Assembly: GCA_900766735.1 (NCBI GenBank)
Contig: CAAFWO010000052.1
Coordinates: 58,539-122,538, forward strand
DNA from: Clostridia bacterium
GTDB lineage: Bacteria; Bacillota; Clostridia; CAKSNL01; HGM11501
Direction: 5' to 3'
DNA: 64,000 nt
Each line of letters begins with the position of its first letter. Position 1 is the first letter of the stretch. The notes beneath the pieces are model-generated. The model made no database searches. It saw only the letters and a program-made list of their open reading frames with translations, and was not told where the DNA came from. A program made the translations under genes and the position numbers. Below, in pieces: positions 32,593 through 62,838 of this stretch.

Positions 32593-34266
32593 ATGTCGCA
32601 GTGCCTTACGCTTAAAAAATCCAACTGCAAAAACTGCTACAAGTGCATCAGACATTGCCCGGTAAAATCCATAAGGTTCTCGGGCAACCAGGCATATATC
32701 ATCGACAATGACTGTATCTTATGCGGCCACTGCTTCGTTGTCTGTCCCCAGAATGCGAAGCAGATAGTCGACGAGACGGAGAAGGTCAAGGTCATGCTCG
32801 CTGCCGGGAATGAGGTTTATTTAAGCCTCGCCCCGTCGTTCGCGGCGAATTACGGCGTCGGCATCGAGGCGATGAGGGAGGCTGTTAAAAAGCTGGGATT
32901 TGCCGACGCAGAGGAGACGGCGATCGGTGCGGCTATCGTCAAGAACGAGTATGACAGGATATTAAAAGAGGAGAAGCCCGACGTTCTGATCTCCTCGTGC
33001 TGTCACAGCGTGAACCTTTTAATTCAGAAATATTACCCCGAAGTCCTGAGCTGTCTTGCGGCTGTGATGAGTCCGATGCAGGCACACTGCGCCGAGATCA
33101 AGAAGCACCACCCAGAGGCAAAGACGGTTTTTGTGGGTCCGTGCGTCGCGAAAAAGGACGAGGCCGACCATTACGGAAGCGTGGTTGACGCGGTTTTGAC
33201 CTTTGACGAGCTGACCGGCTGGTTAAACGACGAGGGCATTACCATCGAGGAAAGAAAAGAGGACACCTCGACAGGCCTCACAAGATTTTTCCCGACTACG
33301 GGCGGAATATTAAAAACCATGGAGAAATCCGAGAAGGACTACACCTATATGGCGGTGGACGGAATCGAAAACTGCATGGCGGTGCTCGACGAGCTCAGAT
33401 CGGGCGGCGTTCACAGGTGCTTTATCGAAATGTCCGCCTGCACGGGAAGCTGTATCGGCGGCCCGGTCATGGAAAAATACCACCGTTCGCCCGTGAGCGA
33501 CTTTAAAAAGATCGCCTCCTTTGCAGGGGAGCACGACTTTGCGGTCGGGGAGGTTAAAAAGGATGCGGTTAGAAAGATATTCACGGCTATCGAGGATAAA
33601 AACGTCTATCCGACCGAGGAGGAGATAATAGAGATCCTTCACAAAATGGGAAAATTCAAGCCTGCGGACGAGCTTAACTGCGGCTCGTGCGGCTATAACA
33701 CCTGCCGCGACAAGGCGGTCGCCATTTTCCGCGGCCGTGCGGAAATTTCGATGTGCCTTCCTTATCTTAAGGACAAGGCGGAAAGCTTTTCCGACAGCAT
33801 CGTGAACAATACCCCGAACGGGCTCATGGTCTTAAACGAAAAGCTTGAGGTTCAGCAGATCAATTCCGCGGCGTTAAAGATTATGAATCTTCGCTCCTCG
33901 CACGATATTCTGGGCGATCAGGTCGTGAGGATACTCGACCCCAAGCTCTTTATGGATGTCTTGTCGAGCGGGAGGAGTGTGAAAAACAGGCGCATTTATT
34001 TAGCCGAATATGAGCGCTATGTCGAAGAAACGATCGTTTACGATAAGGAGTACCGGCTTCTTATCTGCATCATGCGCGATATTACCGACGAGGAGAACAC
34101 AAGGGAGAAAAAGGAGAGCGTGAATAAAAAAACCGTTGAGATCGCGGACAAGGTCGTCGACAAGCAGATGCGGATAGTTCAGGAGATCGCGTCGCTTTTG
34201 GGTGAGACCGCGGCGGAGACGAAGATCGCACTCACCAAGCTTAAGGAGACGATCGCCGATGAATAA
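32593..34266 (+). CDS. Sensory [FeFe]-hydrogenase-like protein HydS/HfsB (4Fe-4S domain, H-cluster-like domain with a variant L1 motif, C-terminal PAS domain)
   Basis: Ferredoxin Cys clusters, SSCCHS in place of TSCCP, GPCVAKKDE, and EMSACTGSCIGGP. A PAS-like C-terminus. Confidence 0.75.
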   Translation: MSQCLTLKKSNCKNCYKCIRHCPVKSIRFSGNQAYIIDNDCILCGHCFVVCPQNAKQIVDETEKVKVMLAAGNEVYLSLAPSFAANYGVGIEAMREAVKKLGFADAEETAIGAAIVKNEYDRILKEEKPDVLISSCCHSVNLLIQKYYPEVLSCLAAVMSPMQAHCAEIKKHHPEAKTVFVGPCVAKKDEADHYGSVVDAVLTFDELTGWLNDEGITIEERKEDTSTGLTRFFPTTGGILKTMEKSEKDYTYMAVDGIENCMAVLDELRSGGVHRCFIEMSACTGSCIGGPVMEKYHRSPVSDFKKIASFAGEHDFAVGEVKKDAVRKIFTAIEDKNVYPTEEEIIEILHKMGKFKPADELNCGSCGYNTCRDKAVAIFRGRAEISMCLPYLKDKAESFSDSIVNNTPNGLMVLNEKLEVQQINSAALKIMNLRSSHDILGDQVVRILDPKLFMDVLSSGRSVKNRRIYLAEYERYVEETIVYDKEYRLLICIMRDITDEENTREKKESVNKKTVEIADKVVDKQMRIVQEIASLLGETAAETKIALTKLKETIADE

Positions 34267-35428
34267 TCTTTGTGCCGACATAGGCTATAAAAGCATCAAC
34301 CACGAGGGAGAACAGCTCTGCGGCGACCATGTGGATATCGTCTCGGCCGGCGATTCGACGGTCATCGTCCTCGCGGACGGGCTCGGGAGCGGTGTTAAGG
34401 CAAGCATATTGTCCACGCTGACATCGAAGATCATCTCGACGATGATGGCCTCCGGCCTCTCGCTCGAGGAGTGCGTTTCCGCGATCGCGGCGGCGCTTCC
34501 CATATGCAGTGAGCGCAAGGTCGCATATTCGACGTTCACGATAATGCACCTTGTGGATAACGAGCGCGCGGAGATAATCCAGTATGACAATCCGCACGTT
34601 ATAATGATACGGGGCAACGAAAATTATATCTATCCCGAAACCGAGATGCAGATCGGCGGAAAAAAGATTTTTAAATCCGAGATAGAGCTTTCGGAGAATG
34701 ACATCTTCATCGCGATGAGCGACGGGTGCCCACACGCCGGAATGGGCGATAAATATAATTTCGGCTGGAAGAGGGAGGACATCATTGAGTTTTTGGAACC
34801 CCTTACCTATAATGATTTCACGGCGAAAACGCTTGCCACTATTTTGGTGGACGAGTGTAATAAGCTCTACGGCGAAGCGCCCGGTGACGACGCAACGGCC
34901 TGCGTTGTGAGAGTACGCCGCCGCGCACCGGTGAATATCTTATTCGGGCCGCCCGAAAACCCGGACGACGCGGACAGAATGATGTCGCTCTTCTTCTCAA
35001 AGGAAGGAAAACACATCGTCTGCGGAGGGACGACGTCCACCATCGCGGCAAAATATTTGGGAAAAACCCTCCGGCCGAGCCTTAATTTCGAGAGCGCGGA
35101 CATTCCGCCAACGGCCGAGATCGAAGGCGTCGATCTGGTGACGGAGGGCGTTATCACGATAAACCGCGTCGTGGAATATGCAAAGGATTATCTTAAGGAC
35201 AACGAGAGCTACAAGGTCTGGGGCTACAAGCGCGACGGTGCGTCGCTGATCAGCCGCATTTTATTCGAGGAAGCGACAGACATTAACTTTTTCGTGGGAC
35301 GTGCGATCAACCCGGCCCACCAGAATCCTGACCTGCCCATTAATTTCAGCATTAAGATGCAGCTTGTAGAGGAGCTTTCAAAGTGCCTCGAACAGATGGG
35401 AAAGAGAATCAAGGTCAGCTATTTCTGA
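34259..35428 (+). CDS. PP2C/SpoIIE-family serine phosphatase (HfsC-like)
   Basis: GDHVDI...VLADGLGSGVKASI metal-binding motifs. The start overlaps the HydS stop. Confidence 0.75.
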   Translation: MNNLCADIGYKSINHEGEQLCGDHVDIVSAGDSTVIVLADGLGSGVKASILSTLTSKIISTMMASGLSLEECVSAIAAALPICSERKVAYSTFTIMHLVDNERAEIIQYDNPHVIMIRGNENYIYPETEMQIGGKKIFKSEIELSENDIFIAMSDGCPHAGMGDKYNFGWKREDIIEFLEPLTYNDFTAKTLATILVDECNKLYGEAPGDDATACVVRVRRRAPVNILFGPPENPDDADRMMSLFFSKEGKHIVCGGTTSTIAAKYLGKTLRPSLNFESADIPPTAEIEGVDLVTEGVITINRVVEYAKDYLKDNESYKVWGYKRDGASLISRILFEEATDINFFVGRAINPAHQNPDLPINFSIKMQLVEELSKCLEQMGKRIKVSYF

Positions 35429-35448
35429 TATTTTAAGGAGGAATATTT

Positions 35449-36873
35449 ATGAGAAAATTCGATACTAAGGTTCAGCACATTAAATATAAGGTGCTGCGTG
35501 AGGTTGCGCGCTTTGCATGGAACGGCAACCTGCTCGACCATGTATTGGATATACCGAAAATAATTATTCCGGGCACAACGCCGACGATGCGCTGCTGCGT
35601 CTATAAAGAACGCGCGATACTCTCTGAGCAGGAGCGCGTTGCGATGGGCGGCCATCCGGAAAACCCCAATGTTATTGAGGTAATCGAGGTGGCGTGCGAC
35701 GAGTGCCCCATGGGCGGATATGAAGTCACTAACGCGTGCCGCGGCTGTCTTGCACACAGGTGCGAGGGCGCGTGCAGAAGGGGCGCTATTACCTTCGATC
35801 AGAACCACACCGCGCACATCGACAAGACTAAATGCGTCGATTGCGGCGCATGCGCAAAGGTCTGCCCCTACAGTGCGATCGTGAGCAGAAAAAGGCCGTG
35901 TCAGAACGCATGTAAGGTCAAGGCTATTTCCGTGAGCGAAAATCTGGCCGCGCTGATCGACAACGAAAAGTGCACCTCGTGCGGAGCGTGCGTTTATCAG
36001 TGTCCGTTCGGCGCGATCATGGATAAGTCATATATTTTGGATACGATTGATATAATTAAGAAAAGTGAGAATAATACCAAATATAAGGTCTATGCCGTCG
36101 TAGCGCCGTCGATCTCGAGCCAGTTTTCCTATGCCGAGCTCGGGAGCGTCGTGACGGGGATTAAAAAGCTCGGCTTTCATGCGGTGGTCGAGGCGGCGCT
36201 CGGCGCCGATATGGTGGCATATTCCGAGGCGGCGGAGCTTTACGAGAAGGGCTTTTTGATCTCCTCGTGCTGTCCGGCGTTCGTGGACTATGTCGAGAAG
36301 AACTTCCCCGATCTTGCCGGTCACATTTCGCACAATCTTTCGCCGATGGCGGCGATCTCAAAATATATCAAGGAGAAGGACGAGACCGCGAGGATAGTTT
36401 TCATCGGCCCGTGCACGGCGAAGAAGATGGAGGTCTTAAAGGAATCTGTCAAGCCCTATGTTGACAACTGCATCACCTTCGAGGAGCTTCAGGCGCTCTT
36501 TGACAGCCGCGATTTTGACTTAAATGAGCTCCGACCCGAGGCGCTTGACAACGCTTCGTATTTCGGAAGAATTTTTGCAAGAAGCGGAGGACTTTCCGAC
36601 GCGGTGGCAGAGGCCTTAAAGGAGCAGGGAAAGACCGATTTTTCATTAAAGGCGGAGTCGTGCGACGGAATCGAGGAGTGCAGGATAGCACTTCTTAAAA
36701 AAAGCAAGGGGCTTCTTGACGCAAACTTTATTGAGGGAATGGCGTGCGTCGGCGGATGCATCGGCGGCGCAGGGTGCTTAACGCACGGCGACAAGAACAA
36801 GTCCGAGGTCGACAAATACGGGCGCAAGGCATTTGAAAAGACAATTGAGGATGCAATCAGAGTGTTAAAATAA
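35449..36873 (+). CDS. hydA: Monomeric [FeFe]-hydrogenase catalytic subunit (HydA, short form with N-terminal 4Fe-4S clusters)
   Basis: H-cluster motifs SSCCPAFV, GPCTAKKMEV and EGMACVGGCIGGAGC. Confidence 0.8.
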   Translation: MRKFDTKVQHIKYKVLREVARFAWNGNLLDHVLDIPKIIIPGTTPTMRCCVYKERAILSEQERVAMGGHPENPNVIEVIEVACDECPMGGYEVTNACRGCLAHRCEGACRRGAITFDQNHTAHIDKTKCVDCGACAKVCPYSAIVSRKRPCQNACKVKAISVSENLAALIDNEKCTSCGACVYQCPFGAIMDKSYILDTIDIIKKSENNTKYKVYAVVAPSISSQFSYAELGSVVTGIKKLGFHAVVEAALGADMVAYSEAAELYEKGFLISSCCPAFVDYVEKNFPDLAGHISHNLSPMAAISKYIKEKDETARIVFIGPCTAKKMEVLKESVKPYVDNCITFEELQALFDSRDFDLNELRPEALDNASYFGRIFARSGGLSDAVAEALKEQGKTDFSLKAESCDGIEECRIALLKKSKGLLDANFIEGMACVGGCIGGAGCLTHGDKNKSEVDKYGRKAFEKTIEDAIRVLK

Positions 36874-36885: not shown

Positions 36886-37413
36886 ATGAACATCTGGCAC
36901 GATATCTCACCAAAAAGAATCACGGCGGAAAATTTCATCGGCGTTATCGAGATCAAAAAGGGAAGCAAGAAAAAATATGAGCTTGACAAGGAGACGGGGC
37001 TTTTGATTTTGGACAGGATCCTTTACACGTCCACGCACTATCCGGCAAACTACGGTTTCATTCCGAGAACGCTCGCGGACGACGGCGACCCGTTGGACAT
37101 TCTGGTTTTAACCACCGAGGACATTGACCCGATGGTGCTTGTCAAGTGCTATCCCATCGGCGTTATCGTTATGATGGACGGAGGAAAGAGGGACGAGAAG
37201 ATCATCGCGATACCGTTTGACGACCCGACCTATAACGCCTACGGCGATATTTCAGACCTTCCGGCTCATATTTTTGACGAGATGCGCCACTTTTTCGAGA
37301 CCTATAAGGAGCTTGAAGGAAAATCCACCGCAGTGGACGAGGTCTTGGGGCGCAGCGAAGCTGTCGCGATTATAAAAGAGAGCATAGACAACTACAACGA
37401 GATTTTTTCCTGA
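36886..37413 (+). CDS. ppa: Inorganic pyrophosphatase (family I)
   Basis: Conserved Asp cluster (DGDPLDILV...) and a length of 175 aa. Confidence 0.85.
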   Translation: MNIWHDISPKRITAENFIGVIEIKKGSKKKYELDKETGLLILDRILYTSTHYPANYGFIPRTLADDGDPLDILVLTTEDIDPMVLVKCYPIGVIVMMDGGKRDEKIIAIPFDDPTYNAYGDISDLPAHIFDEMRHFFETYKELEGKSTAVDEVLGRSEAVAIIKESIDNYNEIFS

Positions 37414-37488: not shown

Positions 37489-37573
37489 AGTTAAAGGAAA
37501 AACAACATTATTATGATGACTTTTCCCCTTTTTGGTGTTATAATATATGTAAAGACAAAGGAGGAATAAAATT

Positions 37574-40252
37574 ATGAAAAGGATATGCTTGATCTTGACG
37601 GCGCTGGCGCTTTGTCTCACACTCGTGCCGGCATATGCCGCCGGCGAGATGGCGGTTTCGGACGCAGATTTTAAATCGGCCGAAGGGTACGACGTAAGAG
37701 ATTCGCTCACCGTGCTGAACGACGGGGGATATTTCGGCTTTGCCGGGGTGGACTTATCGGGCATAAAGTCCGTCACCGTCAAGGCAAAGTGCTCTATGCC
37801 CTACGGCACGAACGGGGACACGCTCGCCGTCGTTTTGGACGACCCCAAAAAAGGCGGGGATATCGGCTACGTCTTAATAAATTCCGAGTATGAGACGGAA
37901 TTTAGCGCAAACATCAAAGAGACGGCCGGCAAGCACGACGTTTATTTTGTTTCGTGCTACGGCAATAACTTTTATAACTCGTACATATCGGTTGAATTTA
38001 ATAAAGAGGCTGTTAAAAACGAGCTTTCCCCGGTTCCCGATGAAAAAATAATTGACCATTACTCCGACACCTGGGCGCTGACGGATTCGCTCGGGCGCGA
38101 GGCGGCATCATACGCCGAGGCGGGAGAGGTCAAGACGGGCGATCACTATGTCGGCATGATGTACTGGAACTGGCATTCATCATCCGACACTCTGCCGCTG
38201 GTCATAAGCGAGGTCATCAAAAATCACCCGGAGGCGAAGGAGGACTACTCAAACTCCGCATGGGGAACGGGCGAGACCTGGTGGGACGAGCCGGTTCTTG
38301 GCTTTTACTCGGGCGAGGACTATTTCGTTTACCGCCGCCACGCCGCAATGCTTGCCGCGGCAGGAGTGGACTTTTTGCTCTTTGATTACACCAACGTCGA
38401 TATGACGTTTACGCGCAACTTAAACGTGATGTTAAAGGCGTTTCACGACTCGCGAGAGGCGGGCGTTAATGTGCCGAAGCTCTCGGCATATTTCGGCGGT
38501 CCGCAAAATGCGGCGAGCGCGATAAAGTCCTTCCGGATGAATTTCCTCGGAAACGAGGACTATTCAGACCTTTTGTTCATATGGGACGGCAAGCCGGCGG
38601 TCGTTATAAGGCCTTTGACCGAAATCGGCCGGTATATCGTGAATAACTCCGAGAGAGATAAAAAGCTGATACAGGATATTTACAAAAAAATTACCGTCAG
38701 AACCCCGGGTAACAGGCAAAACGGGCAGGATGGCGGCACCCCGGCGTGGATCTGGCTTGAGAACTACCCCCTTCACGAGTGGGGCGCTCACCGCGACGAC
38801 GGAAGGGTCGAGGCGATGACCGTCGGCGTTTCCATCAACCATTCGTATGTATATAACTACACCTACACTGGCGTCGCGTCCGATCCTTATACGAAGGGCA
38901 GAGCATACACCGAAGGCTTCGGCGAGGGGGACGACCCGAGGAGCGGCGCGTTCTTCCGCGAGCAGAGCGCACAGGTGCTCGATGTTGACCCGGCGATCGT
39001 CATAATCGACGGGTGGAATGAGTTTAAGGCGACGCGCCAGCAAAACTACGCAGGCTTTAAAAACGCGTTTGTCGACACGTTTGACTCAGAAAACAGCCGC
39101 GACTTAGAGCCGGTTAAGGGCATTTTGAAAGACGACGGCTATGTGATGTTAGTCGACTTCATCAGAAAATACAAGGGCGTTCGCCCGGCACCGGCCGCGT
39201 CGGAGGAAAAGACTATCGACCTTTCGGGCTCACCGGAGCAGTGGAGCGGCGTTTTGCCCGAATACTTAAACTATTATGACGCATATGAGCGCACGGACAA
39301 GGGGCAGGGCGCAGTCTATGAAGGCAGGACCGTCAACTCCATCGAGAGCGCAAAGGTTGCGCGCGACGGGGAAAAGATATACTTCCTCGTCAAGTGCAGG
39401 GGCAATATCGACAAGACCGCGACGGAATTTTTGCACCTTTACATAAATTCCGACCGCAACTATGCGACGGGCCGGGAGGGCTATGACTTTGCGGCAGGCC
39501 GCACAAAGGGCGCTCTGGAAAAGTACGAGGACGGAAGCTGGATAAAGGTCGCGGACTTAAGCTACACCGTTACGGGCGAATATCTGATGTTTGAGATTCC
39601 GAGAGCGGTTTTAAACCTCGGCGATGAGCTGAACTTTGAATTTAAATGGGTGGACTCAGCCGGAGAGATCGCGACCGGGGAGATTTTGGACCTTTATAAG
39701 ACGGGCTCGGCCGCTCCCCTGGGAAGATTTAACTATGTTTACACCGAAAAAGCGGAAAAGACCCTTTCTTCAGCAGAGCGCGGAAGGCTTTACGGCACGG
39801 CGGTATTTAAGGCAGGCTCTTCAAAAATGAACGTTTCGGGCGCAAGGATGGACATTTATACCGACAGTAAAGTGACGGCGGTTGAATCCGGCGGCACGCT
39901 CTATATTCCGTACACCGCGTTTGAGGACGTTTTATACGGCGAGTCCAAGGCCGAGTATGACCCGGGCGACAACACGCTCCACCTCTCTTGCTTTGACTTA
40001 GAGGAGAGGGACATAAAGAACGAGCTTTGGACATATTCGGTTCTCGGAAGCTTTGAGGCCAAGGTGAACGGGCGCGCGAAAGCGCTTTCGCACCCGACGG
40101 CGCTCATTAACGGGATCATCTGTATCCCGGTGACGTATTTTTCCGACTGCCTCGGCTTTGAGCTTTATGAAAAGGACGGCGTCTATGCCGTTTCACGCTA
40201 CGGAAAAGCGCCGGAGAGCGACGTTTTGGCCGCGGCAGATCTTCTTGACTGA
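37574..40252 (+). CDS. Large secreted protein: signal peptide, CBM-like N-domain, central putative glycoside-hydrolase-like domain, and a C-terminal copper-amine-oxidase N-terminal-like domain
   Basis: Signal peptide. Paralogous to the gene at 57850-60597. Glycosidase-like motifs include DGWNEF. The C-terminal ~130 aa match the CuAO N-domain pattern. Confidence 0.6.
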   Translation: MKRICLILTALALCLTLVPAYAAGEMAVSDADFKSAEGYDVRDSLTVLNDGGYFGFAGVDLSGIKSVTVKAKCSMPYGTNGDTLAVVLDDPKKGGDIGYVLINSEYETEFSANIKETAGKHDVYFVSCYGNNFYNSYISVEFNKEAVKNELSPVPDEKIIDHYSDTWALTDSLGREAASYAEAGEVKTGDHYVGMMYWNWHSSSDTLPLVISEVIKNHPEAKEDYSNSAWGTGETWWDEPVLGFYSGEDYFVYRRHAAMLAAAGVDFLLFDYTNVDMTFTRNLNVMLKAFHDSREAGVNVPKLSAYFGGPQNAASAIKSFRMNFLGNEDYSDLLFIWDGKPAVVIRPLTEIGRYIVNNSERDKKLIQDIYKKITVRTPGNRQNGQDGGTPAWIWLENYPLHEWGAHRDDGRVEAMTVGVSINHSYVYNYTYTGVASDPYTKGRAYTEGFGEGDDPRSGAFFREQSAQVLDVDPAIVIIDGWNEFKATRQQNYAGFKNAFVDTFDSENSRDLEPVKGILKDDGYVMLVDFIRKYKGVRPAPAASEEKTIDLSGSPEQWSGVLPEYLNYYDAYERTDKGQGAVYEGRTVNSIESAKVARDGEKIYFLVKCRGNIDKTATEFLHLYINSDRNYATGREGYDFAAGRTKGALEKYEDGSWIKVADLSYTVTGEYLMFEIPRAVLNLGDELNFEFKWVDSAGEIATGEILDLYKTGSAAPLGRFNYVYTEKAEKTLSSAERGRLYGTAVFKAGSSKMNVSGARMDIYTDSKVTAVESGGTLYIPYTAFEDVLYGESKAEYDPGDNTLHLSCFDLEERDIKNELWTYSVLGSFEAKVNGRAKALSHPTALINGIICIPVTYFSDCLGFELYEKDGVYAVSRYGKAPESDVLAAADLLD

Positions 40253-40265
40253 AGGAGGGCGGAAT

Positions 40266-41711
40266 ATGAAAAAAATATTTGCAATATTAACGGTTCTTTG
40301 CCTCGCCCTTTCACCGGCGGTGAGCATGGCGATCTCGGACGGCGAACGTAAGACCGACCCGGTGCTTGCAGATAAGTCGGCATGGGTCATTTCGGCAAGC
40401 TCGGAATTTTCCGAGTGGACGGGCGTAAAGGCGGCGTTTGACGATAATGCCGACACGTTCTGGCACTCAAAATACACCGCAGAGAACGGACAGGTGACCT
40501 GGACTGAACCCGCGCCGTACGAGATTATAGTTACATTCCCGGAAAAGACCTTTATTTCGGGAATGACCTATCAGCCGAGGTCGAGCATCGGCGGAACTAT
40601 CACAAAGTGCGAGATATATGCCTCGGCGGCGACTTCGGGTGAGATGACGCTTTTGACTGTGGCTGAGATGACGCCGGACATCGGCTTTAAGACCGTGAAT
40701 TTCTATGCCAACGTCGAAGTCAAAAGAATCAAGCTAAACATCACCGATACGGTCGGCACGGTCGGTACCGCGGCAGAGATCGATTTTCTTGAAAAGAATG
40801 ACGCTCTGAAATCTGTCGCACTCGGAAAATATGCAGAGTATGAGGCAGAAAACAAGCTCTATCTTATCGGTTCGGCGCACTTCGCGGCAAAAAGCGAGAC
40901 CCCGGTCTGGGCGGGGCACGACGTTTCGTCGATGTTTGACGGCGGCGTGAACAGCTTCTGGCAGACGGAGGCGACGGAATTTCCTGTTTCGTTTGACATT
41001 AATATGAAAGATGCACAGGAGATCTCAAGGATCGAGTGCCTTCCCAGGCAGTCGGACGACTGTCACGGAAACTGGAAGGCGTTCGAGATATGGGCAGGGG
41101 ACAGCGAAGAAGCGCTCACAAAGGTCTATGAAACCGACGATTCACCCAAAAACCTTGACAGAAAGATAATTGAATTTAAAACTCCGCTTAAGGCAAAATA
41201 TTTAAGATTCGTTATTAACGACGCTTTTGCAAGCCGCGCGTCGTGTGCTGAGCTTTACTTTTATCAGACCAAAGAGGCAAAGGACAGGGCGGAGAAAGAA
41301 AAATATGAAAAGTATGTCTTAAGGGTCGGCGAGAAGAAAATAACGGTTACCCGTGGCGGCTCGACATACGAAAAGGAGCTTGACACCGCGCCATATATCT
41401 ATCCCGGCAAGGGAACGACAATGATCCCTCTGCGCGGACTCGTTGAAGAGATGGGCGGCAAGATCGAATGGAACGCTGAGAACGAGAGAATCACGATCAG
41501 CGCGCCGACAGGCAGGATCGAAATGTATGTTCAGAAAAAGACGGTTTTATCCGAGCACCCTAACTACGGCATGGTGCGCTACACTCTTTCCGTCGCGCCC
41601 AAGATCAAAGATTCGCGCACGTTCATTCCGCTCAGGTTTGTGTCAGAGCACCTTGGCTATAACGTCACCTGGAACGGCGAGACGAGAGAAATTACGATAG
41701 AGAAAAAGTAA
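40266..41711 (+). CDS. Secreted protein with tandem discoidin (F5/8 type C)-like domains and a C-terminal CuAO N-terminal-like domain
   Basis: The repeated pattern ASS...AFDDNADTFWHS fits a discoidin domain. The C-terminus reads RTFIPLRFVSEHLGYNVTWNG. Confidence 0.6.
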   Translation: MKKIFAILTVLCLALSPAVSMAISDGERKTDPVLADKSAWVISASSEFSEWTGVKAAFDDNADTFWHSKYTAENGQVTWTEPAPYEIIVTFPEKTFISGMTYQPRSSIGGTITKCEIYASAATSGEMTLLTVAEMTPDIGFKTVNFYANVEVKRIKLNITDTVGTVGTAAEIDFLEKNDALKSVALGKYAEYEAENKLYLIGSAHFAAKSETPVWAGHDVSSMFDGGVNSFWQTEATEFPVSFDINMKDAQEISRIECLPRQSDDCHGNWKAFEIWAGDSEEALTKVYETDDSPKNLDRKIIEFKTPLKAKYLRFVINDAFASRASCAELYFYQTKEAKDRAEKEKYEKYVLRVGEKKITVTRGGSTYEKELDTAPYIYPGKGTTMIPLRGLVEEMGGKIEWNAENERITISAPTGRIEMYVQKKTVLSEHPNYGMVRYTLSVAPKIKDSRTFIPLRFVSEHLGYNVTWNGETREITIEKK

Positions 41712-41760
41712 AAGAAGTGAGTTTTTAAGGCTTTATGGTAAAATGAAGAGGGGGGATTTT

Positions 41761-52431: not shown

Positions 52432-53600
52432 GAATGAGAAGAGTAATTGCAATTTTACTTGTAATAATTCTTTTGTTCACGGCCGGATTTGCCGTGCACT
52501 ACATTAAAAACTCGGGCGCCGGGAAAACGGTGACCGCGGTCGAGACGACATATGAAAAATCCGCCGAGACGGAAGGCTTCATCTTGAAAAACGAAAAGGT
52601 GATCGACCTTTCGGGCGGCGAGTTCGCGCGTTTTTACTATAAAAACGGGGACAAGGTCTCGGGCAATTCAAAGATCGTTTCGCTTTATAACAGCGAGTCG
52701 GACGGGGCGCTGATTGCCGAGATCGAGAAGATTGACGAGCGCATAAAAAGCCTCGGCAGCGACTATGTGAATTTGACCGCGAACGACGTTTTAAAAGTCG
52801 AAAACTATATAGATTCGGACATCGACAAGATGGCGGACGTTATGGCAAAGGGCGAGGCGGCCGAGGAAACACTCCTTCGCGACAGGCTGACGGCGCTTTT
52901 TAACATCAAGCACACAAACTCCGCGCCGGAGAACGACGACGAGGAGGCACTAAATAGAGAAAAGCAGGCGCTTGAGGGCAAGCTCTCGTCGGCGAAGAAC
53001 GATGTTTTCGCCCCGATGGGCGGAATCTTTTCCGAGAAGGCGGACGGGTTTGAGGGCGCTGTTACACTTGACGAGGCGATGAATATCACTCCCTCGGGCG
53101 TGGACTCACTGCTGGCCGAAAAGGAAAAAGAGACAGGCAAGGCCGTGAAGATTATCGATAACTACAAGTGGTACATAATCGCCAAGGTGCCCGAAAAGAC
53201 CGTTTCGGGCAAGGAGAAAGGCGCAAAGGTGAAGATCGGGATGCCGGACGGGGAGATCACCGGAACGCTTGAATACCTCTCGGCCGGAGAGAACGGCTAT
53301 GTGGCTCTTCTGATCTCGACCGACAGGGACTCGTCCTCGCTTTCAGATGCGAGAAAGGTCAAGATCAAGCTGATATTCGACCGGTACTCGGGCTTCGTTA
53401 TCCCGACAAAGGCGTTTCACATTTACGACGGCGAATACGGCGTATTCGTTAAGAAAAATTCAAAAAAGATATTTAAAAAGACCGAGGTCATCTATTCGGA
53501 CGACGAGTACAGCGTTGTCTCAAGGTCGGACGGAACGGAGCTTAAACTCTATGACTCGGTTATTACGGACGGTGATTTAAGTGAATACTACGATCAGTGA
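52428..53600 (+). CDS. Membrane-anchored coiled-coil protein (HlyD-like secretion/adaptor family?)
   Basis: An N-terminal TM helix and a long coiled-coil region. It overlaps miaA and yggS. Confidence 0.35.
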   Translation: MRMRRVIAILLVIILLFTAGFAVHYIKNSGAGKTVTAVETTYEKSAETEGFILKNEKVIDLSGGEFARFYYKNGDKVSGNSKIVSLYNSESDGALIAEIEKIDERIKSLGSDYVNLTANDVLKVENYIDSDIDKMADVMAKGEAAEETLLRDRLTALFNIKHTNSAPENDDEEALNREKQALEGKLSSAKNDVFAPMGGIFSEKADGFEGAVTLDEAMNITPSGVDSLLAEKEKETGKAVKIIDNYKWYIIAKVPEKTVSGKEKGAKVKIGMPDGEITGTLEYLSAGENGYVALLISTDRDSSSLSDARKVKIKLIFDRYSGFVIPTKAFHIYDGEYGVFVKKNSKKIFKKTEVIYSDDEYSVVSRSDGTELKLYDSVITDGDLSEYYDQ

Positions 53601-54267
53601 GAACATTAAAAAAATCAGGGAGGAGATTGACCGCGCCGCATTAAAGGCCGGGCGCGACCCGGGCGAGATCACGCTTATGGCGGTCTCCAAGACCAAGCCC
53701 GTCGAGTCGGCAGTTTTGGCGGCGAAAAGCGGCGTTATTTTGGGCGAGAACTATGTTCAGGAATTTAAGGAAAAGTTTGAGGCGGAGCCCGAACTTCCCT
53801 GGCACTTTATCGGCCATCTTCAGACAAACAAGGTCAAATACATCGTCGGCAAGGCGAAAATGATCCATTCGGTGGACAGTCTGCATCTTGCCGAAAAGAT
53901 AAATTCCGAGTCGGAAAAGAGGGGAATTGTGACAGATTGCCTCGCGGAAATAAATTCCGGGTGCGAGGAAAGCAAATTTGGTTTGACATTTTCCGAATCT
54001 TTATATATAATAAAAGAAATGGCCGAATTCAAGAACATAAGGTTAAGAGGGCTCATGACTGTTGCGCCGGTCTGCCAGAGCGCAGAGGACAACAGAGAGA
54101 TATTTAAAAAGATGAAGGACACTTTCCTTGAAATAAAAAAGGATGTGCCTTCATTTGACACGCTTTCGATGGGAATGAGCGCGGACTTTACCGTCGCCGT
54201 CGAAGAGGGGGCGTCGATAGTCAGAGTCGGGACAGCGATATTCGGCGAGAGAAACTATACAAAGTGA
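53581..54267 (+). CDS. yggS: YggS/YlmE family PLP-homeostasis protein
   Basis: Alanine-racemase-N-like fold, the VSKTKP Lys motif, and a conserved position before sepF. Confidence 0.85.
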   Translation: MNTTISENIKKIREEIDRAALKAGRDPGEITLMAVSKTKPVESAVLAAKSGVILGENYVQEFKEKFEAEPELPWHFIGHLQTNKVKYIVGKAKMIHSVDSLHLAEKINSESEKRGIVTDCLAEINSGCEESKFGLTFSESLYIIKEMAEFKNIRLRGLMTVAPVCQSAEDNREIFKKMKDTFLEIKKDVPSFDTLSMGMSADFTVAVEEGASIVRVGTAIFGERNYTK

Positions 54268-54295
54268 AAAATTTTTATGAAAGGAAAGATACACT

Positions 54296-54823
54296 GTGGC
54301 AAACATTTTAAACAAGATCGGCGACATGATCTTCGGGCCCGAGGATTATGACGACGAGGAAATGACCGCCGAGGAAGAGACAGAAGAAAAAGAGGAAAAA
54401 AGAGGAATGGATCTTTTCCGCCGCGAAGAGCCGAAGGCGGAGATAAAGAAGGACGATTTTTCCCGTTCATATAAAAAGGAGGACGACTTTTCGCGCACAT
54501 ACGGCAAGAAGGGCAAGGTCGTTAACATCACGTCGACGACTCAGTTCGAGGTCGTTGTGCTTCAGCCCGAGTCCTTTGAAGAGGCGAAGGACATTGCGGA
54601 CAACTTGAAGGCGAAAAAGCCCGTTATCGTCAACCTTGAAAAGATCGAAAAAGAGCAGGCAAGAAGAATGGTCGACTTTGTTTCGGGCTCTTCCTATGCC
54701 TTGGGCGGCGACATTCAGAAGATTTCAAATATGATCTTCTTGGTAACGCCCTACACGGTCGGAATCTTAGGCGACTTTAAGGACGAGCTTAAGAACAAGG
54801 GCATCTTCCCCTGGAGCTATTGA
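54296..54823 (+). CDS. sepF: Cell division protein SepF
   Basis: Acidic linker and a conserved C-domain (...VIVNLEKIEKEQARRMVDFVSG). Confidence 0.85.
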   Translation: MANILNKIGDMIFGPEDYDDEEMTAEEETEEKEEKRGMDLFRREEPKAEIKKDDFSRSYKKEDDFSRTYGKKGKVVNITSTTQFEVVVLQPESFEEAKDIADNLKAKKPVIVNLEKIEKEQARRMVDFVSGSSYALGGDIQKISNMIFLVTPYTVGILGDFKDELKNKGIFPWSY

Positions 54824-54824
54824 T

Positions 54825-55091
54825 ATGGTTCTTTTAATAATAGTCAGGCTTTTGGAGATATATGACTTTATCATTTTGTTAAGGTGCATATGTTCATTCA
54901 TCTTTATGGGGACGTATAATTCGTTTTATATGTTCTTGGTGAAGATAACAGAGCCTGTGTTATCGCCGGTGAGAAACCTTCTTTCGCGCACGCCCCTGGG
55001 CAATCTGCCGCTTGATTTTTCACCGGTCATCGTGATGCTTTTGATTGGAGTATTGGAGCGTTGGGTTTACTTATTAAGCAGAGTGTTTTAG
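54825..55091 (+). CDS. yggT: YggT-family membrane protein (YlmG)
   Basis: Size (88 aa), two TM helices and its position. Confidence 0.75.
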   Translation: MVLLIIVRLLEIYDFIILLRCICSFIFMGTYNSFYMFLVKITEPVLSPVRNLLSRTPLGNLPLDFSPVIVMLLIGVLERWVYLLSRVF

Positions 55092-55825: not shown

Positions 55826-55842
55826 TTTAAGGAGTTGGTTTT

Positions 55843-56292
55843 ATGTATTCACCGCTTGAGCTTGAACAGATCGAATTTGAAAAAAAGGCGTTCGGCGGCT
55901 ACAGTATGGAGGATGTTGACAGAACATTTTCCGTGCTTAAGAGGGATTACGAGGAGCTTTATGTTGAAAACTCCGAGCTTAAGAAAAAGTTAAAGGCATT
56001 GGAGAGCCAGGTTTCCGAGAGCGAGGATATGAAGGAGACGCTTCACAATGTCTTAATCGCGGCTCAGAAGTCGAGCGACGAGAAGAAAGAGGCGAGCGAG
56101 AAAGAGGCCGAGCTCATCATCAAAAAGGCCGAGCTCGACGCGGAAAAGATCAAAAGCGGCGCGGAAAAAGAGGTTATGGACTTAGAGAAGAAGAAAGAGG
56201 ACTTAAAGAACGAGGTCTCCGTTTTCGTGACAAAGATGAGCGCGCTTTTCGAGGCGCAGGTCAAGTATTTAAATAAGTCGGAGGAGTTATAA
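55843..56292 (+). CDS. divIVA: DivIVA-domain cell-division protein
   Basis: N-terminal SPLELEQIEFEKKAFGGYSMEDVDRTF and a coiled coil. Confidence 0.85.
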   Translation: MYSPLELEQIEFEKKAFGGYSMEDVDRTFSVLKRDYEELYVENSELKKKLKALESQVSESEDMKETLHNVLIAAQKSSDEKKEASEKEAELIIKKAELDAEKIKSGAEKEVMDLEKKKEDLKNEVSVFVTKMSALFEAQVKYLNKSEEL

Positions 56293-56756: not shown

Positions 56757-56758
56757 AC

Positions 56759-57682: not shown

Positions 57683-57693
57683 GGTAAAAACGT

Positions 57694-57718
57694 GGGACGG
57701 CGCCGGCCGTCCTTTTTT
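57694..57718 (+). terminator. Rho-independent terminator after rluD
   Basis: ggacggc-loop-gccgtcc hairpin followed by TTTTTTG. Confidence 0.65.
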
Positions 57719-57736
57719 GTGCACATCACGAAGAGC

Positions 57737-57849: not shown

Positions 57850-60597
57850 ATGAAACGAAGAGTATGTATTTTACTTGCGCTCACGCTTCTTTTGTCGGCC
57901 TTTGTTTCCGTTTCGGCGGCAGACAAGGTGTTCACGGCGAAGGACGTGACGGAGCAGATCGGCGACGTTAAGATCGAAAACGGCGTCGTTGCTATCGGCG
58001 GAAATCTGAAGCTTTCCGCTATCGGGTTCAAGGCGGATCTGACGGGCGTTAAGTCCATCGAGATCAAGGCAAAGGAATACCGTGACCCGAACGGTGAAAT
58101 TTTCAGAGTTAAGGTGGACGACCCCAATTCATTAAGCATCGGCGAGATCGTGTTCGGTGACGGATCCGATACCGCAAGCGGTAACATCAGCGAGCAGAAG
58201 GGCGTTCACACGGTCTATCTTTATACGACGCTCCTTTCGACCGGTGCCAAGTGGGAGATTGAGACCATCACGTTAAAGAGCGAGGCTAAAAAGCTCGTAA
58301 CCCCCGTGCCGGACGATAAGATAATCGACAACTGGCACGACACATGGGCCGCGACCGACAGCTACGGAAGGCGCGTTGCGGACTTTGAGGAAACCGGACC
58401 CGTTAAAGAGGGAAACCGCAAAGTCGGTATGTTCTACTGGCCGAGCCTTACGACCGGCACGACCGGTGTGACGCCCGATATTTTAAGGGCACATCCCGAA
58501 GCGTACGGCGACTTTAAGAACCCGGCGTGGAAGAACGGCGGCAAGGAAATAGCTTACTGGTGGGGCGAGCCTGTTTACGGCTTTTACTCAGAGACTGATT
58601 ACTGGGTGCTTAAAAAGCACGGCACGATCCTTGCAAACGCCGGTGTGGACGCGATATTTATGGACTACACCAACGACGCGGGATTAAACATCAAGAACTA
58701 CAACCGCATTTTAAGGGTGTTCCACGACCTTCGCGAGGAGGGCATAAACGCTCCCAAGGTCAGCATCTACGGCAACATGGGCGGCGCGTCGAACGGAACT
58801 CCGAGAGAGGTTCTGCCGGCGATGTATTATAATCAGGTTAAGTCCGGCGAGTGGGACGACCTCATCTTCTACTGGGAGGGCGACCCGATGTACATAAACT
58901 TCCCGCTCTCCGAAAAGTCAAAGGTGACCGAGGATAAGGATCTTGAAAAGCTCTTTGCAGACATTGACTTCAAGCTCAACTTAAGAGACACGGGCGAGCT
59001 TCGCGGCGGCGCCGCAACAAGGGAACACCGCCACGTAAACTGGCTTGAGGAATATCCCCAGCATCCCTTCGGCGTGACGGACAGCGGAAGAAGAGAGACA
59101 ATCTCATTGGCTGTCGGAATCAACCAGTCTTATGTTGACGGAAGCTCGATTGTCGGCGTATTTTCCGACCCCTATACAAAGGGCAGAGCATATTCCGAGG
59201 CGTTCGGCGAGGACTACAGAGCGGACAACGGAAGAACCGCATATTTCTTCCGCGAGCAGGCCGCTCATGCTCTTAACGTGGACGCGGAATTCGTGTTCGT
59301 TGACGGCTGGAACGAGTGGAAGACACCCATCTATAACTCTTTCGGAACCCACACGGGAACGGTTTTCGTTGACCTTTTTGACGAGGAGAACAGCCGTGAC
59401 TTTGAGCCTTCCAGAAGCTATTTAAAGGACGACTATTATAACCTTTTAGTCGACTTTATAAGAAAATACAAGGGCACGCGCCCGGCACCCGTTGCAACCG
59501 CGGCCGCAACTATCGACATTAACGGCGCACCGTCGCAGTGGGACTCTGTCGGCCCGATGTTCTATAACGACTTTGACAACTATGAGCGCGACTACACCGG
59601 CGGAGAGGACTTTGAGACGGGCGAGCCCGTAAGCTATAAGACGACAGTCAACAACTCCATTTCGCGCGCGAAGGTCGCAAGAGATAACGATAATTTCTAT
59701 TTCTATGTTAAGACGGTGAACCCCATAAAGACCGGCACTCCCGGATTTATGAACCTCTACATAAACTCTGACAGAAACCCGGCAACAGGCTGGGAGGGCT
59801 TTGACTACTCCGTTAACGTGGCCGGCGACAAGGTTCTTGCAAAGGCGGTAAATAACTCCTGGAGCTGGGAGCCTGTTGGTAACATTAACTACACCGTATC
59901 GGGCGACGTACTTCAGATGGCGATCCCGAGAAGCCTCTTAGGCGAGACCGGAACGGTTGACTTTGAGTTTAAGTGGACTGACTCCTTAGTTTGCGACGGA
60001 GATTATCTTGACTTCTATTCTGAAGGCTCCGTAGCTCCTATGGGCAAGTTTAACTACGTTTACACAGAGGTTGAGCAGACCGCTCTTACTCAGGCTGAGC
60101 GCGACGCGCTTCCCGACGTTTCGATCCTCAAGGCGGGCACATCCAAGGCAATTATCGACGGCGGAAAGATGCCTGTTTACGAGAAGGACACCGCGGTTAC
60201 TCCGTTTGAGATGAACGGAACGCTCTATGTTCCGCTCGAAACCTATGAAGAGATCTTGGACTACGGCTTTACAAAGGTTGAATATTCGGCAGAGGACAAC
60301 ACGGTTTACCTCGGAAGGCACGACTTAGAGCCCAATTCGACCGGGAACGTTTACACCATCACGAACTACGAGTGGACATATTCTGTTGTCGGCTCGCTTG
60401 AGGCAAGAAACAACGGAACGCTCCGCACGCTCACCAACGCATGCGTAACGGCTAACGGCCTTGTCTACGTTCCGGTGTCCTACGCGGCAGACGTTTTCGG
60501 CTGGTCCGTAAGGAACGTGGGCGGCGGAATCTGGACGGTGTCCAGAAACCCGGCAAGCGAGAGTGCGGTCAACGCAGTGCTTCATCATTTAGGTTAA
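57850..60597 (+). CDS. Large secreted protein, paralog of 37574-40252 (CBM-like domain, putative glycoside-hydrolase-like domain, CuAO N-terminal-like domain)
   Basis: Signal peptide and conserved blocks shared with the paralog (PVPDDKIIDNWHDTWA.TDS.GR, FREQ.A..L.VD, DGWNEW). Confidence 0.6.
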   Translation: MKRRVCILLALTLLLSAFVSVSAADKVFTAKDVTEQIGDVKIENGVVAIGGNLKLSAIGFKADLTGVKSIEIKAKEYRDPNGEIFRVKVDDPNSLSIGEIVFGDGSDTASGNISEQKGVHTVYLYTTLLSTGAKWEIETITLKSEAKKLVTPVPDDKIIDNWHDTWAATDSYGRRVADFEETGPVKEGNRKVGMFYWPSLTTGTTGVTPDILRAHPEAYGDFKNPAWKNGGKEIAYWWGEPVYGFYSETDYWVLKKHGTILANAGVDAIFMDYTNDAGLNIKNYNRILRVFHDLREEGINAPKVSIYGNMGGASNGTPREVLPAMYYNQVKSGEWDDLIFYWEGDPMYINFPLSEKSKVTEDKDLEKLFADIDFKLNLRDTGELRGGAATREHRHVNWLEEYPQHPFGVTDSGRRETISLAVGINQSYVDGSSIVGVFSDPYTKGRAYSEAFGEDYRADNGRTAYFFREQAAHALNVDAEFVFVDGWNEWKTPIYNSFGTHTGTVFVDLFDEENSRDFEPSRSYLKDDYYNLLVDFIRKYKGTRPAPVATAAATIDINGAPSQWDSVGPMFYNDFDNYERDYTGGEDFETGEPVSYKTTVNNSISRAKVARDNDNFYFYVKTVNPIKTGTPGFMNLYINSDRNPATGWEGFDYSVNVAGDKVLAKAVNNSWSWEPVGNINYTVSGDVLQMAIPRSLLGETGTVDFEFKWTDSLVCDGDYLDFYSEGSVAPMGKFNYVYTEVEQTALTQAERDALPDVSILKAGTSKAIIDGGKMPVYEKDTAVTPFEMNGTLYVPLETYEEILDYGFTKVEYSAEDNTVYLGRHDLEPNSTGNVYTITNYEWTYSVVGSLEARNNGTLRTLTNACVTANGLVYVPVSYAADVFGWSVRNVGGGIWTVSRNPASESAVNAVLHHLG

Positions 60598-60611
60598 GGA
60601 GGGACTGTTAA

Positions 60612-62725
60612 ATGAAAAAGATAATATCACTTATTTTAGCTCTCCTTATGATAGAGAGCCTGGCATTCACCTCATTTGCGGAGGAGAAAATATTGCCCCG
60701 CGCATCGAGCTGGACAATCACTGCGTCCTCGTCATATCCGACGGGCGACATCAGCGCCGCGTTTGACGGTAGCGGCGCGTCATTCTGGCACTCCGACTAT
60801 AACCATAACGGCAAGGAGTTTGTCTGGATAGCGGAATGCCCCCACGCGATACACATCTATTTCGGCGGAATAACCAAGGTTTCGGGCTTCCGATATCTTC
60901 CGAGACAGGACGGAAACGACGTCGGACTTTTTGGCGAGTTCAGGGTTTTCGGCTCCAAGGACGGAACTGAATATACCGAAATATATGAAGGAAAATTCAC
61001 ATGGGACGGAACGGACAGAAAAGCAAAATCCGTTTCATGGGGCGATATGGACCTTCGCGCAATCCAGATTGAAATTTTAAGCACCAACGGCGGCTTTGCG
61101 ACCGCGGCGGCTGTCGATCTTTTGACAGGCGGAACGGGAAGCCCCATAAACAAGGGCGCAAAAATGCTTGTTGAGCCGCCCTATATCGCACCCGGCGAGT
61201 CAAACGGAGAGATCATCGAGCGCGGCGACGAGGCATGGGAGATCGAGGCAAGCTCGAACGACAAGAACAACGGGATCGGAGGCGCGTTTGACGGTAAGGA
61301 GTCGACCTTCTGGCACACCGCTTATCAGACGAACGACGAGAACACCGAGATCGTCTCGCACGACGAGCCTCCGCACACTATCACCGTTAAATTCCCCGAA
61401 GTCAAGGAAATTTCCGGATTCATCGTTGTTCCGCGTACGGGAAGCGATGCGGGCAAATTCAAGAAGTTTGAAATCTATTCGTCAATGAACGGCGATGATT
61501 TCGAGAAGATTTACGAGGGCAACTTTGTCATTATCGGCGGCGACTGGTCTGAGAGCACGGCTTCATGGGGCAACACCAAGATGAAGGCGATCAGAATCGT
61601 TATAACAGAGTCGTTGGGCGGATACGGCACGGCGGCGGAGATCAAATTCTTAAAGGACTCCAAGCCTTCGAAAAGAGCGTTTGACTTCTCCGACTGGAAA
61701 ATTTCCGTCCGCAATCAGAACATGGAAAACTGTTCTGCATCGTGGGGTCGATAGGAAGAATTGTTGACGGCAACGCGGACGCTTACTGGCACTCATACTA
61801 CGAGGCTGAGGGCGCAAACATCACCAAGATGGAGAAGGCTCCCTTCTGGATCGATATGGTTCTTCCCGAGAAGGACACGATCGAGGGCTTTGAATACACC
61901 CCCAGAAACGACAGCTGGCAGGGCAGACTTGTAGAGTACAACATCAATGTTTCGGACTCGGACGACGGCGAGCTTACCACGATCTATACAGGTCACGAGA
62001 GCCGCGACTCCGGCTCTAAGAGAACGATCAACTTCGGTATCGCGGTCGAGGTCAAGAGAATCCAGATCGAGATCATTCAGTCTGCAGGCGACTATGCGGC
62101 GATCTCGGACTTCATATTCACTCCCGGTTAGAAGGGAACAGAGGTCGTTGCTCTTGACAAGTTTGTCGACGAGATGCATAACACGTTCTTAAACGAGATC
62201 GACAAATCAAATTATGTTGTTGAGGCGGATATTGAGAATTTCGGAACAAAGTGGAAGCTTACGAACATCTTTGACGGAGCAACCTCCTCTGCATGGCAGT
62301 CCGAGACGGCAACAAGGCCGGTCACGATCAAGGTTGACCTTGGCGGAAAGCACATTATAAGAGCAATCAACATCTCTCCGATGCTTTCGGCCGGCTTTAT
62401 CGGCTACTGGGAACAGTTCGACATTTTAACAAGCTCGGACGGCAAGAACTATAAGGAGCTCATAAAGGACTACAGCTTCCCGAAGAGAGACCTCTCCGAG
62501 AAGACCATCACGTTAGATGAGCCGGTTCAGACAAGATACATTGCCTTCCGCGTGAAGAAATACACGATTTACATCGAAAAGGCAGGTCAGACCATTCGTT
62601 ACACGATGACCGCGCCGCCCAAGATCAAGAACGGCAGAACTTATATTCCGGTCCGCTTCGTTTCGGAGCACCTGGGCTATAATGTCGGCTGGGACGGCGA
62701 AACAAAGACCATCACGATCAACTAA
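60612..62725 (+). pseudogene. Disrupted paralog of 40266-41711 (four discoidin-like domains plus a CuAO N-like domain), broken by a 1-nt frameshift in a G4 run (~61744-61747) and an in-frame TAG (62129-62131)
   Basis: Three consecutive ORFs (60612-61754, 61742-62131, 62174-62725) continue the same domain series. Restoring one G rejoins the first two. The third is in frame across the TAG. Confidence 0.6.
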
Positions 62726-62726
62726 A

Positions 62727-62806: not shown

Positions 62807-62838
62807 GCCGCAGGGTCGGTTCTCGGAATCGACCGCCG
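62807..62838. repeat. REP-like palindromic element, copy 3 (imperfect: GGTCGGTTCTCGGAATCGACC)
   Basis: Same core as the other copies with one stem mismatch and a 3-nt loop. It has GCAGG/GCCG flanks. Confidence 0.5.

Follow-up and report, generated by a model that had tools for sequence, protein, structure and literature searches.

Glycoside hydrolases (GHs) of the families GH99 and GH71 have a common catalytic D/E-x-x-E dyad (PMC12394665), and a distant relative of GH99, OpGH195 from O. pacifica (PDB 5ngw, deposited as 'OpGH99A'), is an endo-alpha-1,3-mannanase that acts on C6-sulfated diatom mannan (PMC13063451). The DNA analysed here, a 64-kb stretch from a Clostridia bacterium (contig CAAFWO010000052.1; hereafter the window, within which all feature positions are numbered), carries two modules of two genes each, A1-B1 and A2-B2, whose A proteins contain a large domain that appears, from its fold and sequence profile, to be a remote homologue of this GH99 superfamily. 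The B proteins are lectin-like, and A and B end in the same type of module, the Cu_amine_oxidN1 domain (PF07833), which we refer to as the stalk domain. We consider it fairly probable that the two genes of each module form an operon and encode an extracellular pair for glycan processing, consisting of an undescribed GH99-related glycanase and a lectin built from modules of the carbohydrate-binding module (CBM) family CBM32. The four genes are the following:

37574..40252, plus strand: A1, putative secreted modular glycanase-like protein, 892 amino acids (open reading frame, ORF)
40266..41711, plus strand: B1, secreted lectin-like partner, 481 amino acids, with two F5/8 type C (CBM32-type) domains between the signal peptide and the stalk domain (PF00754, PF07833)
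57850..60597, plus strand: A2, paralogue of A1 with the same domain order, 915 amino acids (ORF, BLASTP)
60612..62725, plus strand: B2, pseudogene, originally with four F5/8 type C domains and a stalk domain, 807 amino acids when intact (three ORFs)

Fold, conservation and relatives of the core domain

The A proteins are laid out as follows:

37574..37642, plus strand: A1 signal peptide, residues 1-23, MKRICLILTALALCLTLVPAYA/AGE, read from the sequence with an inferred cleavage site
37646..38008, plus strand: A1 N-terminal CBM6-like beta-sandwich, residues ~25-145
38021..39208, plus strand: A1 (beta/alpha)8 barrel, residues ~150-545, putative catalytic domain whose invariant acids include D271, E483, D501 and D520
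39209..39763, plus strand: A1 beta-sandwich, residues ~546-730, part of the conserved family core, modelled as all-beta
39791..40249, plus strand: A1 C-terminal stalk (Cu_amine_oxidN1-like) domain, residues ~740-892
~58300-59499, plus strand: A2 barrel
~59509-60072, plus strand: A2 beta-sandwich
~60118-60594, plus strand: A2 stalk domain

Residues ~150-730 of A1 and A2, the core, gave no match in Pfam, NCBIfam or the sequences of the PDB, in agreement with a preliminary description of this DNA that left the central domain outside the families recognisable from sequence; it was placed through its fold instead. An AlphaFold2 model of A1, calculated from 37 homologues, reached a mean predicted local distance difference test score (pLDDT) of 92.2 and a predicted template modelling score (pTM) of 0.92, and its residues ~150-545 adopt the (beta/alpha)8 barrel fold of the GH99 type; the signal peptide forms a helix in the model, where pLDDT is low over residues 16-22. 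Structure searches with this model returned GH99, GH71 and GH195 as the best matches, at 13-15% identity. A profile of the core found GH99 only among the PDB sequences (E 0.009-0.15), and aligned motifs occur in the same order in both: G.Y..D....H, followed by GWNE[WFY] opposite the GH99 motif FNEWHEG. Both the model and all family members, including those with ~600 amino acids, show the barrel succeeded by the beta-sandwich (~546-730), whose motifs FKW.D and G..AP..RF are conserved; this domain order resembles that of GH71, in which a C-terminal beta-sandwich packs closely on the barrel. The N-terminal module of A has the beta-sandwich fold of CBM6. The corresponding Pfam model, PF03422, did not match A1 or A2 and remained below its threshold in the homologue P0018 (20.7 vs 28.9 bits); matches to it are recorded for the homologues P0012, P0019 and P0035.

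Across 277 diverse members of the family, four acids are 100% conserved: D271, D501, D520 and E483, the latter at the first position of the dyad (277 of 277). Nearly as constant are D266, D171 and D510 (98-99.6%) and E413 and E512 (96%), and conserved Trp, Tyr and Arg residues accompany these near-invariant acids. All family-invariant residues are retained in A1 and A2, and the model puts D271, E483 and D501 where barrel strands reach their C-terminal ends. The GH99 model PF16317 did not match A1 or A2 at E<=0.01 and was approached only below threshold by some of 10 diverse relatives, and no match to the GH71 Pfam model was obtained for any of these proteins. GH195 was dropped as the identity of the core, since its structure 5ngw went undetected by the core-family profile and identity to it is 15%. 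Judged by these sequence and model comparisons, the core is a remote homologue within the GH99 superfamily and a member of none of the families GH99, GH71 and GH195, and its second catalytic residue probably differs from that of GH99 and GH71.

The core family is very large. When 1.84 billion representative sequences were searched with its profile, 4,104 proteins scored at E<=1e-3, and 1,419 of them reached E<=1e-30; the family comprises at least 4,104 clusters at 50% identity. A word-indexed search with a Bacteroides member yielded 6,254 clusters at 90% identity, and those among them that bear a name are all called 'hypothetical protein', with a Pfam domain in none. At least 432 loci are present in the species representatives of GTDB, distributed over Bacteroidota, Clostridia, Planctomycetota, Kiritimatiellota, Acidobacteriota and other phyla from gut and soil. 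We found no model for the family in Pfam or NCBIfam, and no description of it in literature reports on GH99-like and GH71-like proteins, DUF5722 or GH196-GH201. Its minimal form of ~600 amino acids consists of signal peptide, barrel and sandwich; a dockerin or a sorting domain of the type IX secretion system (T9SS) takes the position of the stalk in other members.

The genomic neighbourhood was surveyed at ~55 loci with 190 neighbour proteins, using crude gene calling and, for each batch, only the 25 top-ranking Pfam families. It contained SusD (15), DUF5722 (9), GH106 (6), F5/8 (6), GH78 (5) and GH127 (5), together with TonB-dependent receptors, GH42 and GH43. The Bacteroidota members lie in polysaccharide utilisation loci (PULs) of the SusC/SusD type with GH106/GH78 alpha-L-rhamnosidases and GH127 beta-L-arabinofuranosidases. 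Such neighbours would point to the catabolism of complex rhamnose- or arabinose-bearing glycans and name no single substrate. Many of the Bacteroidota PULs inspected (L040, L044, L048, L050, L058, L068, L073, L082) possess two or three core-family paralogues in tandem. One of these paralogues is a subtype of ~640-690 amino acids in which an insertion of ~130-150 residues in the barrel divides the phmmer alignment with the A core in two; a paralogue of this insertion type gave the best sub-threshold match to the GH99 Pfam model.

Module layout, copy number and the broken B2 gene

A1 and A2 align from end to end with 41% identity over 927 columns (BLASTP, E=0). Module 1 is preceded by ppa (36886-37413) and module 2 by rluD (56759-57682). 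The gap from A to B measures 10-14 nucleotides (nt) in both modules, with B2 starting at 60612, 14 nt past the A2 stop codon, and the motif AGGAGG stands at or beside the stop codon of each A gene. Signal peptides of typical form are found at the N-termini of all four gene products, and the 64-kb window contains no third copy of the module. The following signals were recognised:

37516..37544, plus strand: promoter-like site before A1, ATGACT, 17 nt spacer, TATAAT and a TG extension (consensus scan, 10/12 matches, pattern only)
40253..40258, plus strand: ribosome-binding site AGGAGG of B1, directly 3' of the A1 stop codon (read from the sequence)
57694..57713, plus strand: terminator-like hairpin between rluD and module 2 (8-bp stem, 6 GC pairs, T run; pattern only)
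62814..62834, plus strand: terminator-like hairpin 3' of module 2 (9-bp stem, T run; pattern only)

The promoter-like site in front of A1 and the hairpins after rluD and B2 mark the modules as units separate from their housekeeping neighbours.

Much of what the preliminary description had proposed about the layout is borne out. It had described two-gene modules at these positions, one after ppa and one after rluD, had taken A1 and A2 for paralogues of the same architecture that share the blocks PVPD.KIID..DTWA.TDS.GR, FFREQ, DGWNEF/W and G.FNYVYTE, and had regarded both proteins of each module as secreted and furnished with glycan-binding modules. The gene coordinates, the full-length BLASTP alignment, in which all of these blocks appear, and the signal peptides and domain matches agree with it, and the possibility it had raised that the two large proteins belong to different families does not hold, as the alignment places them in one; nor did the searches of Pfam, NCBIfam and PDB sequences assign them to a well-known GH family, the other refuting outcome it had named. 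Two details need correction: the proteins, called giant, are simply large (892 and 915 amino acids), and B1 does not start at the TTG at 40158 but at the ATG at 40266, downstream of the AGGAGG at 40253-40258. Its idea of a duplication stands with respect to paralogy and fails with respect to an event in this genome, as the tree described below separates the two copies into deep clades of a multi-copy family.

The closest relatives of A1 are an orthologue with 98% and a paralogue in strain L006 with 81% identity, followed by proteins at 49%; for A2, an orthologue with 96.7% is followed by proteins at 45%. A1 and A2 are 41-49% identical to all remaining members of a multi-copy Clostridia family, and in a neighbour-joining tree of 29 A proteins of the stalk type (calculated without bootstrap) they fall into separate deep clades. 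From these sequence comparisons, A1 and A2 are best regarded as ancient paralogues within this family; a recent duplication within the genome is ruled out by the identity of 41% and the separate clades. Near-identical alleles are frequent in public data (81 for A1, 115 for A2). Several single metagenome-assembled genomes contain three or four separate loci each, some of them with two or three modules, and so carry at least three copies, probably five or more.

The linkage of A and B is nearly constant. For 26 stalk-type A genes the sequence extends far enough downstream, and 25 of them are followed by a gene for a protein with discoidin domains and a stalk, mostly after a gap of 0-22 nt; this partner contains 2-6 discoidin repeats, and arrays of two and three modules are common. 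The sole exception (L022:7512-10244) has no detected discoidin gene in the 2.2 kb downstream. In the natural fusion P0018, two F5/8 domains, a CBM6, an A core and a stalk domain are combined in one polypeptide, which lends independent support to a functional link between A and B.

Module copy number differs within the species. The conspecific strain L006 has an extra A-B module between B1 and a LOR-like gene, with an A protein 81% identical to A1 and a B protein of 1203 amino acids with six F5/8 domains. The last ~90 nt are nearly identical between both B genes of L006 (L006:9640-10000, 16210-16430), and the corresponding junction in the window (41700-41745) lies at the 3' end of the B gene, right past the stop codon, and lacks the hairpin of L006. 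The near-identical 3' ends and the position of the junction fit module gain or loss by recombination, and the sequences suggest that the extra module may have been gained or lost through recombination between the 3' ends of B genes.

The B proteins exceed the threshold of PF00754 and resemble characterised CBM32 modules. B1 scores 98.9 bits against the F5/8 type C model PF00754 and 95.8 bits against PF07833; the B2 fragments score 117.6, 45.8 and 60.6 bits against PF00754 and hold, in all, four F5/8 domains and an incomplete Cu_amine_oxidN1 domain. The B domains are of the CBM32 type, with the Clostridium perfringens CBM32s 2v72 (E 1.7e-6) and 2j1a as the closest solved modules; 4lks, 7blg and 4a41 are further PDB matches. 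The threshold of PF07833 (24.2 bits) is passed by B1 and by A2 (31.6 bits). The study of PaSOD, a Paenibacillus superoxide dismutase whose homodimerisation is mediated by the Cu_amine_oxidN1 domain (PMC10432803), is the only experiment on this domain that our literature search found; the search returned no direct anchoring experiment. A surfaceome study counts Cu_amine_oxidN1 proteins among surface proteins and reports the domain as common in cell-wall hydrolases (PMC4137172).

B2 is interrupted into ORFs of 380, 129 and 183 amino acids (60612-61754, 61742-62131, 62174-62725). DNA alignment to the intact alleles of L016, L091 and L092 revealed three lesions:

61747..61748, plus strand: 1-nt deletion, causing a frameshift
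62129..62131, plus strand: TAG stop codon in place of CAG (Gln) in the intact alleles
62566..62567, plus strand: junction of a 309-nt in-frame deletion

The third lesion costs the protein the last part of its fourth F5/8 domain and the first half of its stalk; the ends of the Pfam matches fit this loss, with the F5/8 match stopping at profile position 115/127 and the stalk match beginning at 40/108. The same three lesions emerge against each of the three intact alleles. L016 belongs to a different species, its housekeeping genes being 81-92% identical to those of the window at the nucleotide level, and has an A2 orthologue (96.7% amino acid identity) followed by an intact B2 of 807 amino acids with four F5/8 domains and a stalk. 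L091 and L092 are conspecific strains (rluD and divIVA 98-99.6% identical in nucleotides), and both contain an intact B2 of 807 amino acids. The split into 380, 129 and 183 amino acids was called identically in three independent assemblies, and two more contigs from other samples carry an identical A2 and end within the first B2 fragment; this recurrence across assemblies shows the lesions to be genuine and typical of a strain lineage in circulation. B2 is a true pseudogene: relative to intact orthologues its lesions are disabling, and they are reproducible across assemblies.

Within the species, the ratio of non-synonymous to synonymous substitution rates (dN/dS) amounts to 0.19-0.23 for A2, compared with 0.19-0.20 in six housekeeping genes, and the remnants of B2 give 0.25-0.32; against the L016 orthologue, A2 has a dN/dS of 0.07. 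The ~50 substitutions behind the B2 values are too few to call relaxed selection from 0.25-0.32 vs 0.19-0.20. The within-species values imply that the inactivation of B2 is recent and that A2 is still constrained. In this strain lineage, the lectin partner of module 2 was lost recently, while the enzyme gene A2 is maintained. The preliminary description had already considered the second discoidin partner inactivated and had asked whether it is intact in sister strains, as it is in L091 and L092; the lineage-specific decay it had suspected is accurate for B2, where it is recent and on the level of strains, and does not extend to A2, whose dN/dS is that of housekeeping genes.

Just downstream of the window end, a gene for a zinc alcohol dehydrogenase is broken into ORFs of 117 and 202 amino acids on L001 and L002, contigs with the same set of alleles as the window (L001:16963-17976, L002:12377-13363). 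In the conspecific strains with an intact B2 this gene is intact too, with 337 amino acids (L091:13272-14285); in the window's lineage it adds, a few kb from B2, another lineage-specific pseudogene. When window positions 53581-63737 are compared with L016, the synonymous divergence (dS) of the A2-B2 module (0.20-0.45) is below that of all flanking housekeeping genes (0.45-1.05) except divIVA, whose 0.45 equals the highest value of a B2 fragment. An exchange of the module between species after the divergence of its flanks might explain this, and so might a strong constraint on its codons.

Elsewhere in the window, positions 6532-18340 hold a cluster of glycan-uptake-like genes with four ABC permease genes, an NHL/TPR/Yip1 protein, a solute-binding protein of 1055 amino acids with an N-terminal extension of ~600 amino acids and a DUF5696 protein of 836 amino acids; DUF5696 also occurs beside Bacteroidota members with an A core in L087. 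A gene for a large serine recombinase (Resolvase, Recombinase, Zn_ribbon_recom) lies just upstream of this transporter cluster (5049-6401) and may mark the boundary of a mobile element. Immediately upstream of ppa (32593-36873), a gene for a SpoIIE-type phosphatase is located between two [FeFe]-hydrogenase-like genes, an arrangement that is kept in L006.

Proposed mechanism and rival explanations

Gene order, architecture, fold, conservation pattern, A-B linkage, B2 lesions and selection signals are established by the analysis; hydrolase activity, endo action, the role of the stalk and any given substrate are inferred. A would be a secreted enzyme in which a signal peptide, a CBM6-like module, a barrel with a probably tightly associated beta-sandwich and a C-terminal stalk follow each other, and would probably function as an endo-acting glycanase, in analogy to its superfamily. 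E483 would keep its catalytic position, and the second catalytic group would come from elsewhere, with the invariant D271, D501 or D520 as candidates. B would be a secreted non-catalytic protein of 2-6 CBM32-type discoidin domains and a stalk, its gene coupled to that of A through the ribosome-binding site at the A stop codon. The stalk domains common to both would bring the two proteins together, either on the cell surface or by mutual pairing, so that the multivalent lectin B could hold a complex glycan while A cuts it internally.

A bolder extension is possible, and we hold it only tentatively: the core may found a new and very large GH family, a fourth branch beside GH99, GH71 and GH195, with a rearranged catalytic apparatus that pairs E483 with an acid on a different strand; judged by the PUL neighbours, the substrate might be a rhamnose- and arabinose-decorated glycan of plant or microbial origin; and gut Clostridia might form a minimal lectin-enzyme complex of two proteins through heterotypic stalk pairing. 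The core was set apart from GH99, GH71 and GH195 by Pfam, PDB-sequence profile and structure comparison, and the family may recently have received a CAZy number.

Several points weigh against a glycanase-lectin pair of this kind. The position three residues after E483 in the dyad is Ala in 216 of the 277 members, and the six commonest residues there are all non-acidic; the mechanism of GH99 and GH71 is not simply transferable, and catalysis is putative. Strand positions in the model are the one basis on which the invariant residues are proposed to form a single pocket. The retention of A2 in a strain devoid of an intact B2 indicates that B is not strictly needed for A. The literature provided no assayed member of the core family, and the neighbour survey was limited by its crude gene calling and by its restriction to the 25 leading Pfam families of each batch. 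Within this genome, neither a sugar transporter nor another carbohydrate-active enzyme (CAZyme) adjoins the modules, whose neighbours are housekeeping genes, and their surroundings name no substrate. Surface anchoring by the Cu_amine_oxidN1 domain, which the preliminary description had taken for granted, is an assumption, and the stalk is a putative anchor or dimeriser here.

That A1 and A2 are ordinary, divergent endo-alpha-mannanases or alpha-1,3-glucanases of GH99, GH71 or GH195 working with the same dyad seems very improbable to us. Exactly these families are the best structural matches, weak profile matches reach GH99 and nothing else, and a beta-sandwich stands beside the barrel as in GH71 (PMC12394665). 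Yet the best relative scores 19.4 bits against the cut-off of 33 in PF16317, the GH71 model is equally missed, identity does not go beyond 13-15%, the family profile overlooks the GH195 structure 5ngw, and the second dyad acid is replaced by Ala in most members, with no acid among the six commonest residues at its position. The same replacement would suit a non-catalytic adhesin or glycan binder with a degenerate barrel and thus a purely adhesive pair, an alternative the preliminary description had already raised and for which the abundance of binding modules in both proteins also speaks. We judge it improbable, as several acidic and aromatic residues at the strand ends are 96-100% conserved across phyla, which is typical of an active site and not of a degenerate enzyme, and as the family holds the enzyme positions in catabolic PULs.

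For the Clostridia subfamily, the main rival is that the modules act on the cell's own envelope, be it in the remodelling of wall or S-layer glycopolymers or in an autolysin-like manner during division or sporulation. The frequency of Cu_amine_oxidN1 in cell-wall hydrolases of Firmicutes (PMC4137172), the location of module 2 right after the division cluster sepF-ylmH-divIVA-lspA-rluD and the lack of an adjoining transporter or other CAZyme would all be compatible with this. We nevertheless consider it unlikely: each module has promoter-like or terminator boundaries of its own, the core is spread widely among Bacteroidota, in SusC/SusD loci that also contain rhamnosidases and GH127, and occurs with dockerins as well, copy number varies between strains and the loss of B2 is tolerated. 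In general, CBM6 and CBM32 modules bind foreign plant or host glycans. Finally, the window probably derives from a metagenome-assembled genome, so that an assembly or sequencing artefact might be suspected behind the apparent duplication or the broken B2. This is practically out of the question, however, given that modules with 41% identity cannot be a collapsed or duplicated assembly, that three independent assemblies have the same B2 split and two further contigs an identical A2, and that a 309-nt deletion and a base substitution go beyond homopolymer-type indels.

The notable element of these modules is the enzyme core, whose very large family has neither a name nor a model, ranks among the larger protein families still nameless and is related by fold to GH99, GH71 and GH195 but with an altered dyad; the duplication and the pseudogene represent ordinary dynamics on the level of strains. 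Context and fold point to an unrecognised glycan-degrading activity in the carbon turnover of gut and soil. One characterised member would annotate thousands of genes and could show that the GH99 superfamily includes a variant mechanism. The operon of enzyme and lectin with common stalks offers a testable model of how binding and cleavage might be paired in Gram-positive gut bacteria without cellulosomes, and the strain differences in copy number and in the pseudogene are natural genotypes for testing the contribution of the lectin.

Comparison with known systems

The endo-alpha-1,2-mannosidases and mannanases of GH99 (human MANEA 6zdc, BtGH99, BxGH99) are 13% identical to the core, which differs from them by the Ala in place of the second Glu of the dyad, by a barrel of ~400 residues with extra insertions and by the beta-sandwich of ~185 residues that always accompanies it and that GH99 lacks. 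Identity is likewise 13% to the alpha-1,3-glucanases of GH71 (AnGH71C 9fnf, S. pombe Agn1 8yfh), whose D-x-x-E is not kept in the core; GH71 is mostly fungal, whereas the core family is bacterial and far larger in metagenomes. OpGH195 (15% identity) comprises ~360 residues without a beta-sandwich and stems from marine Flavobacteriia.

With respect to display, A and B share one type of C-terminal module, as do the components of cellulosomes and of S-layer homology (SLH)-type systems, and relatives of A carry a dockerin or T9SS domain at this position; unlike for those systems, we know of no scaffold or receptor for the stalk domain. The closest parallel in module logic is provided by NanJ, NagH and NagJ of C. 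perfringens, in which multivalent CBM32 lectin modules stand beside a catalytic module for complex glycans. Their CBM32s are fused to the enzyme, whereas those of the modules described here reside on the polypeptide encoded by the next gene and are joined to the core only in rare relatives such as P0018.

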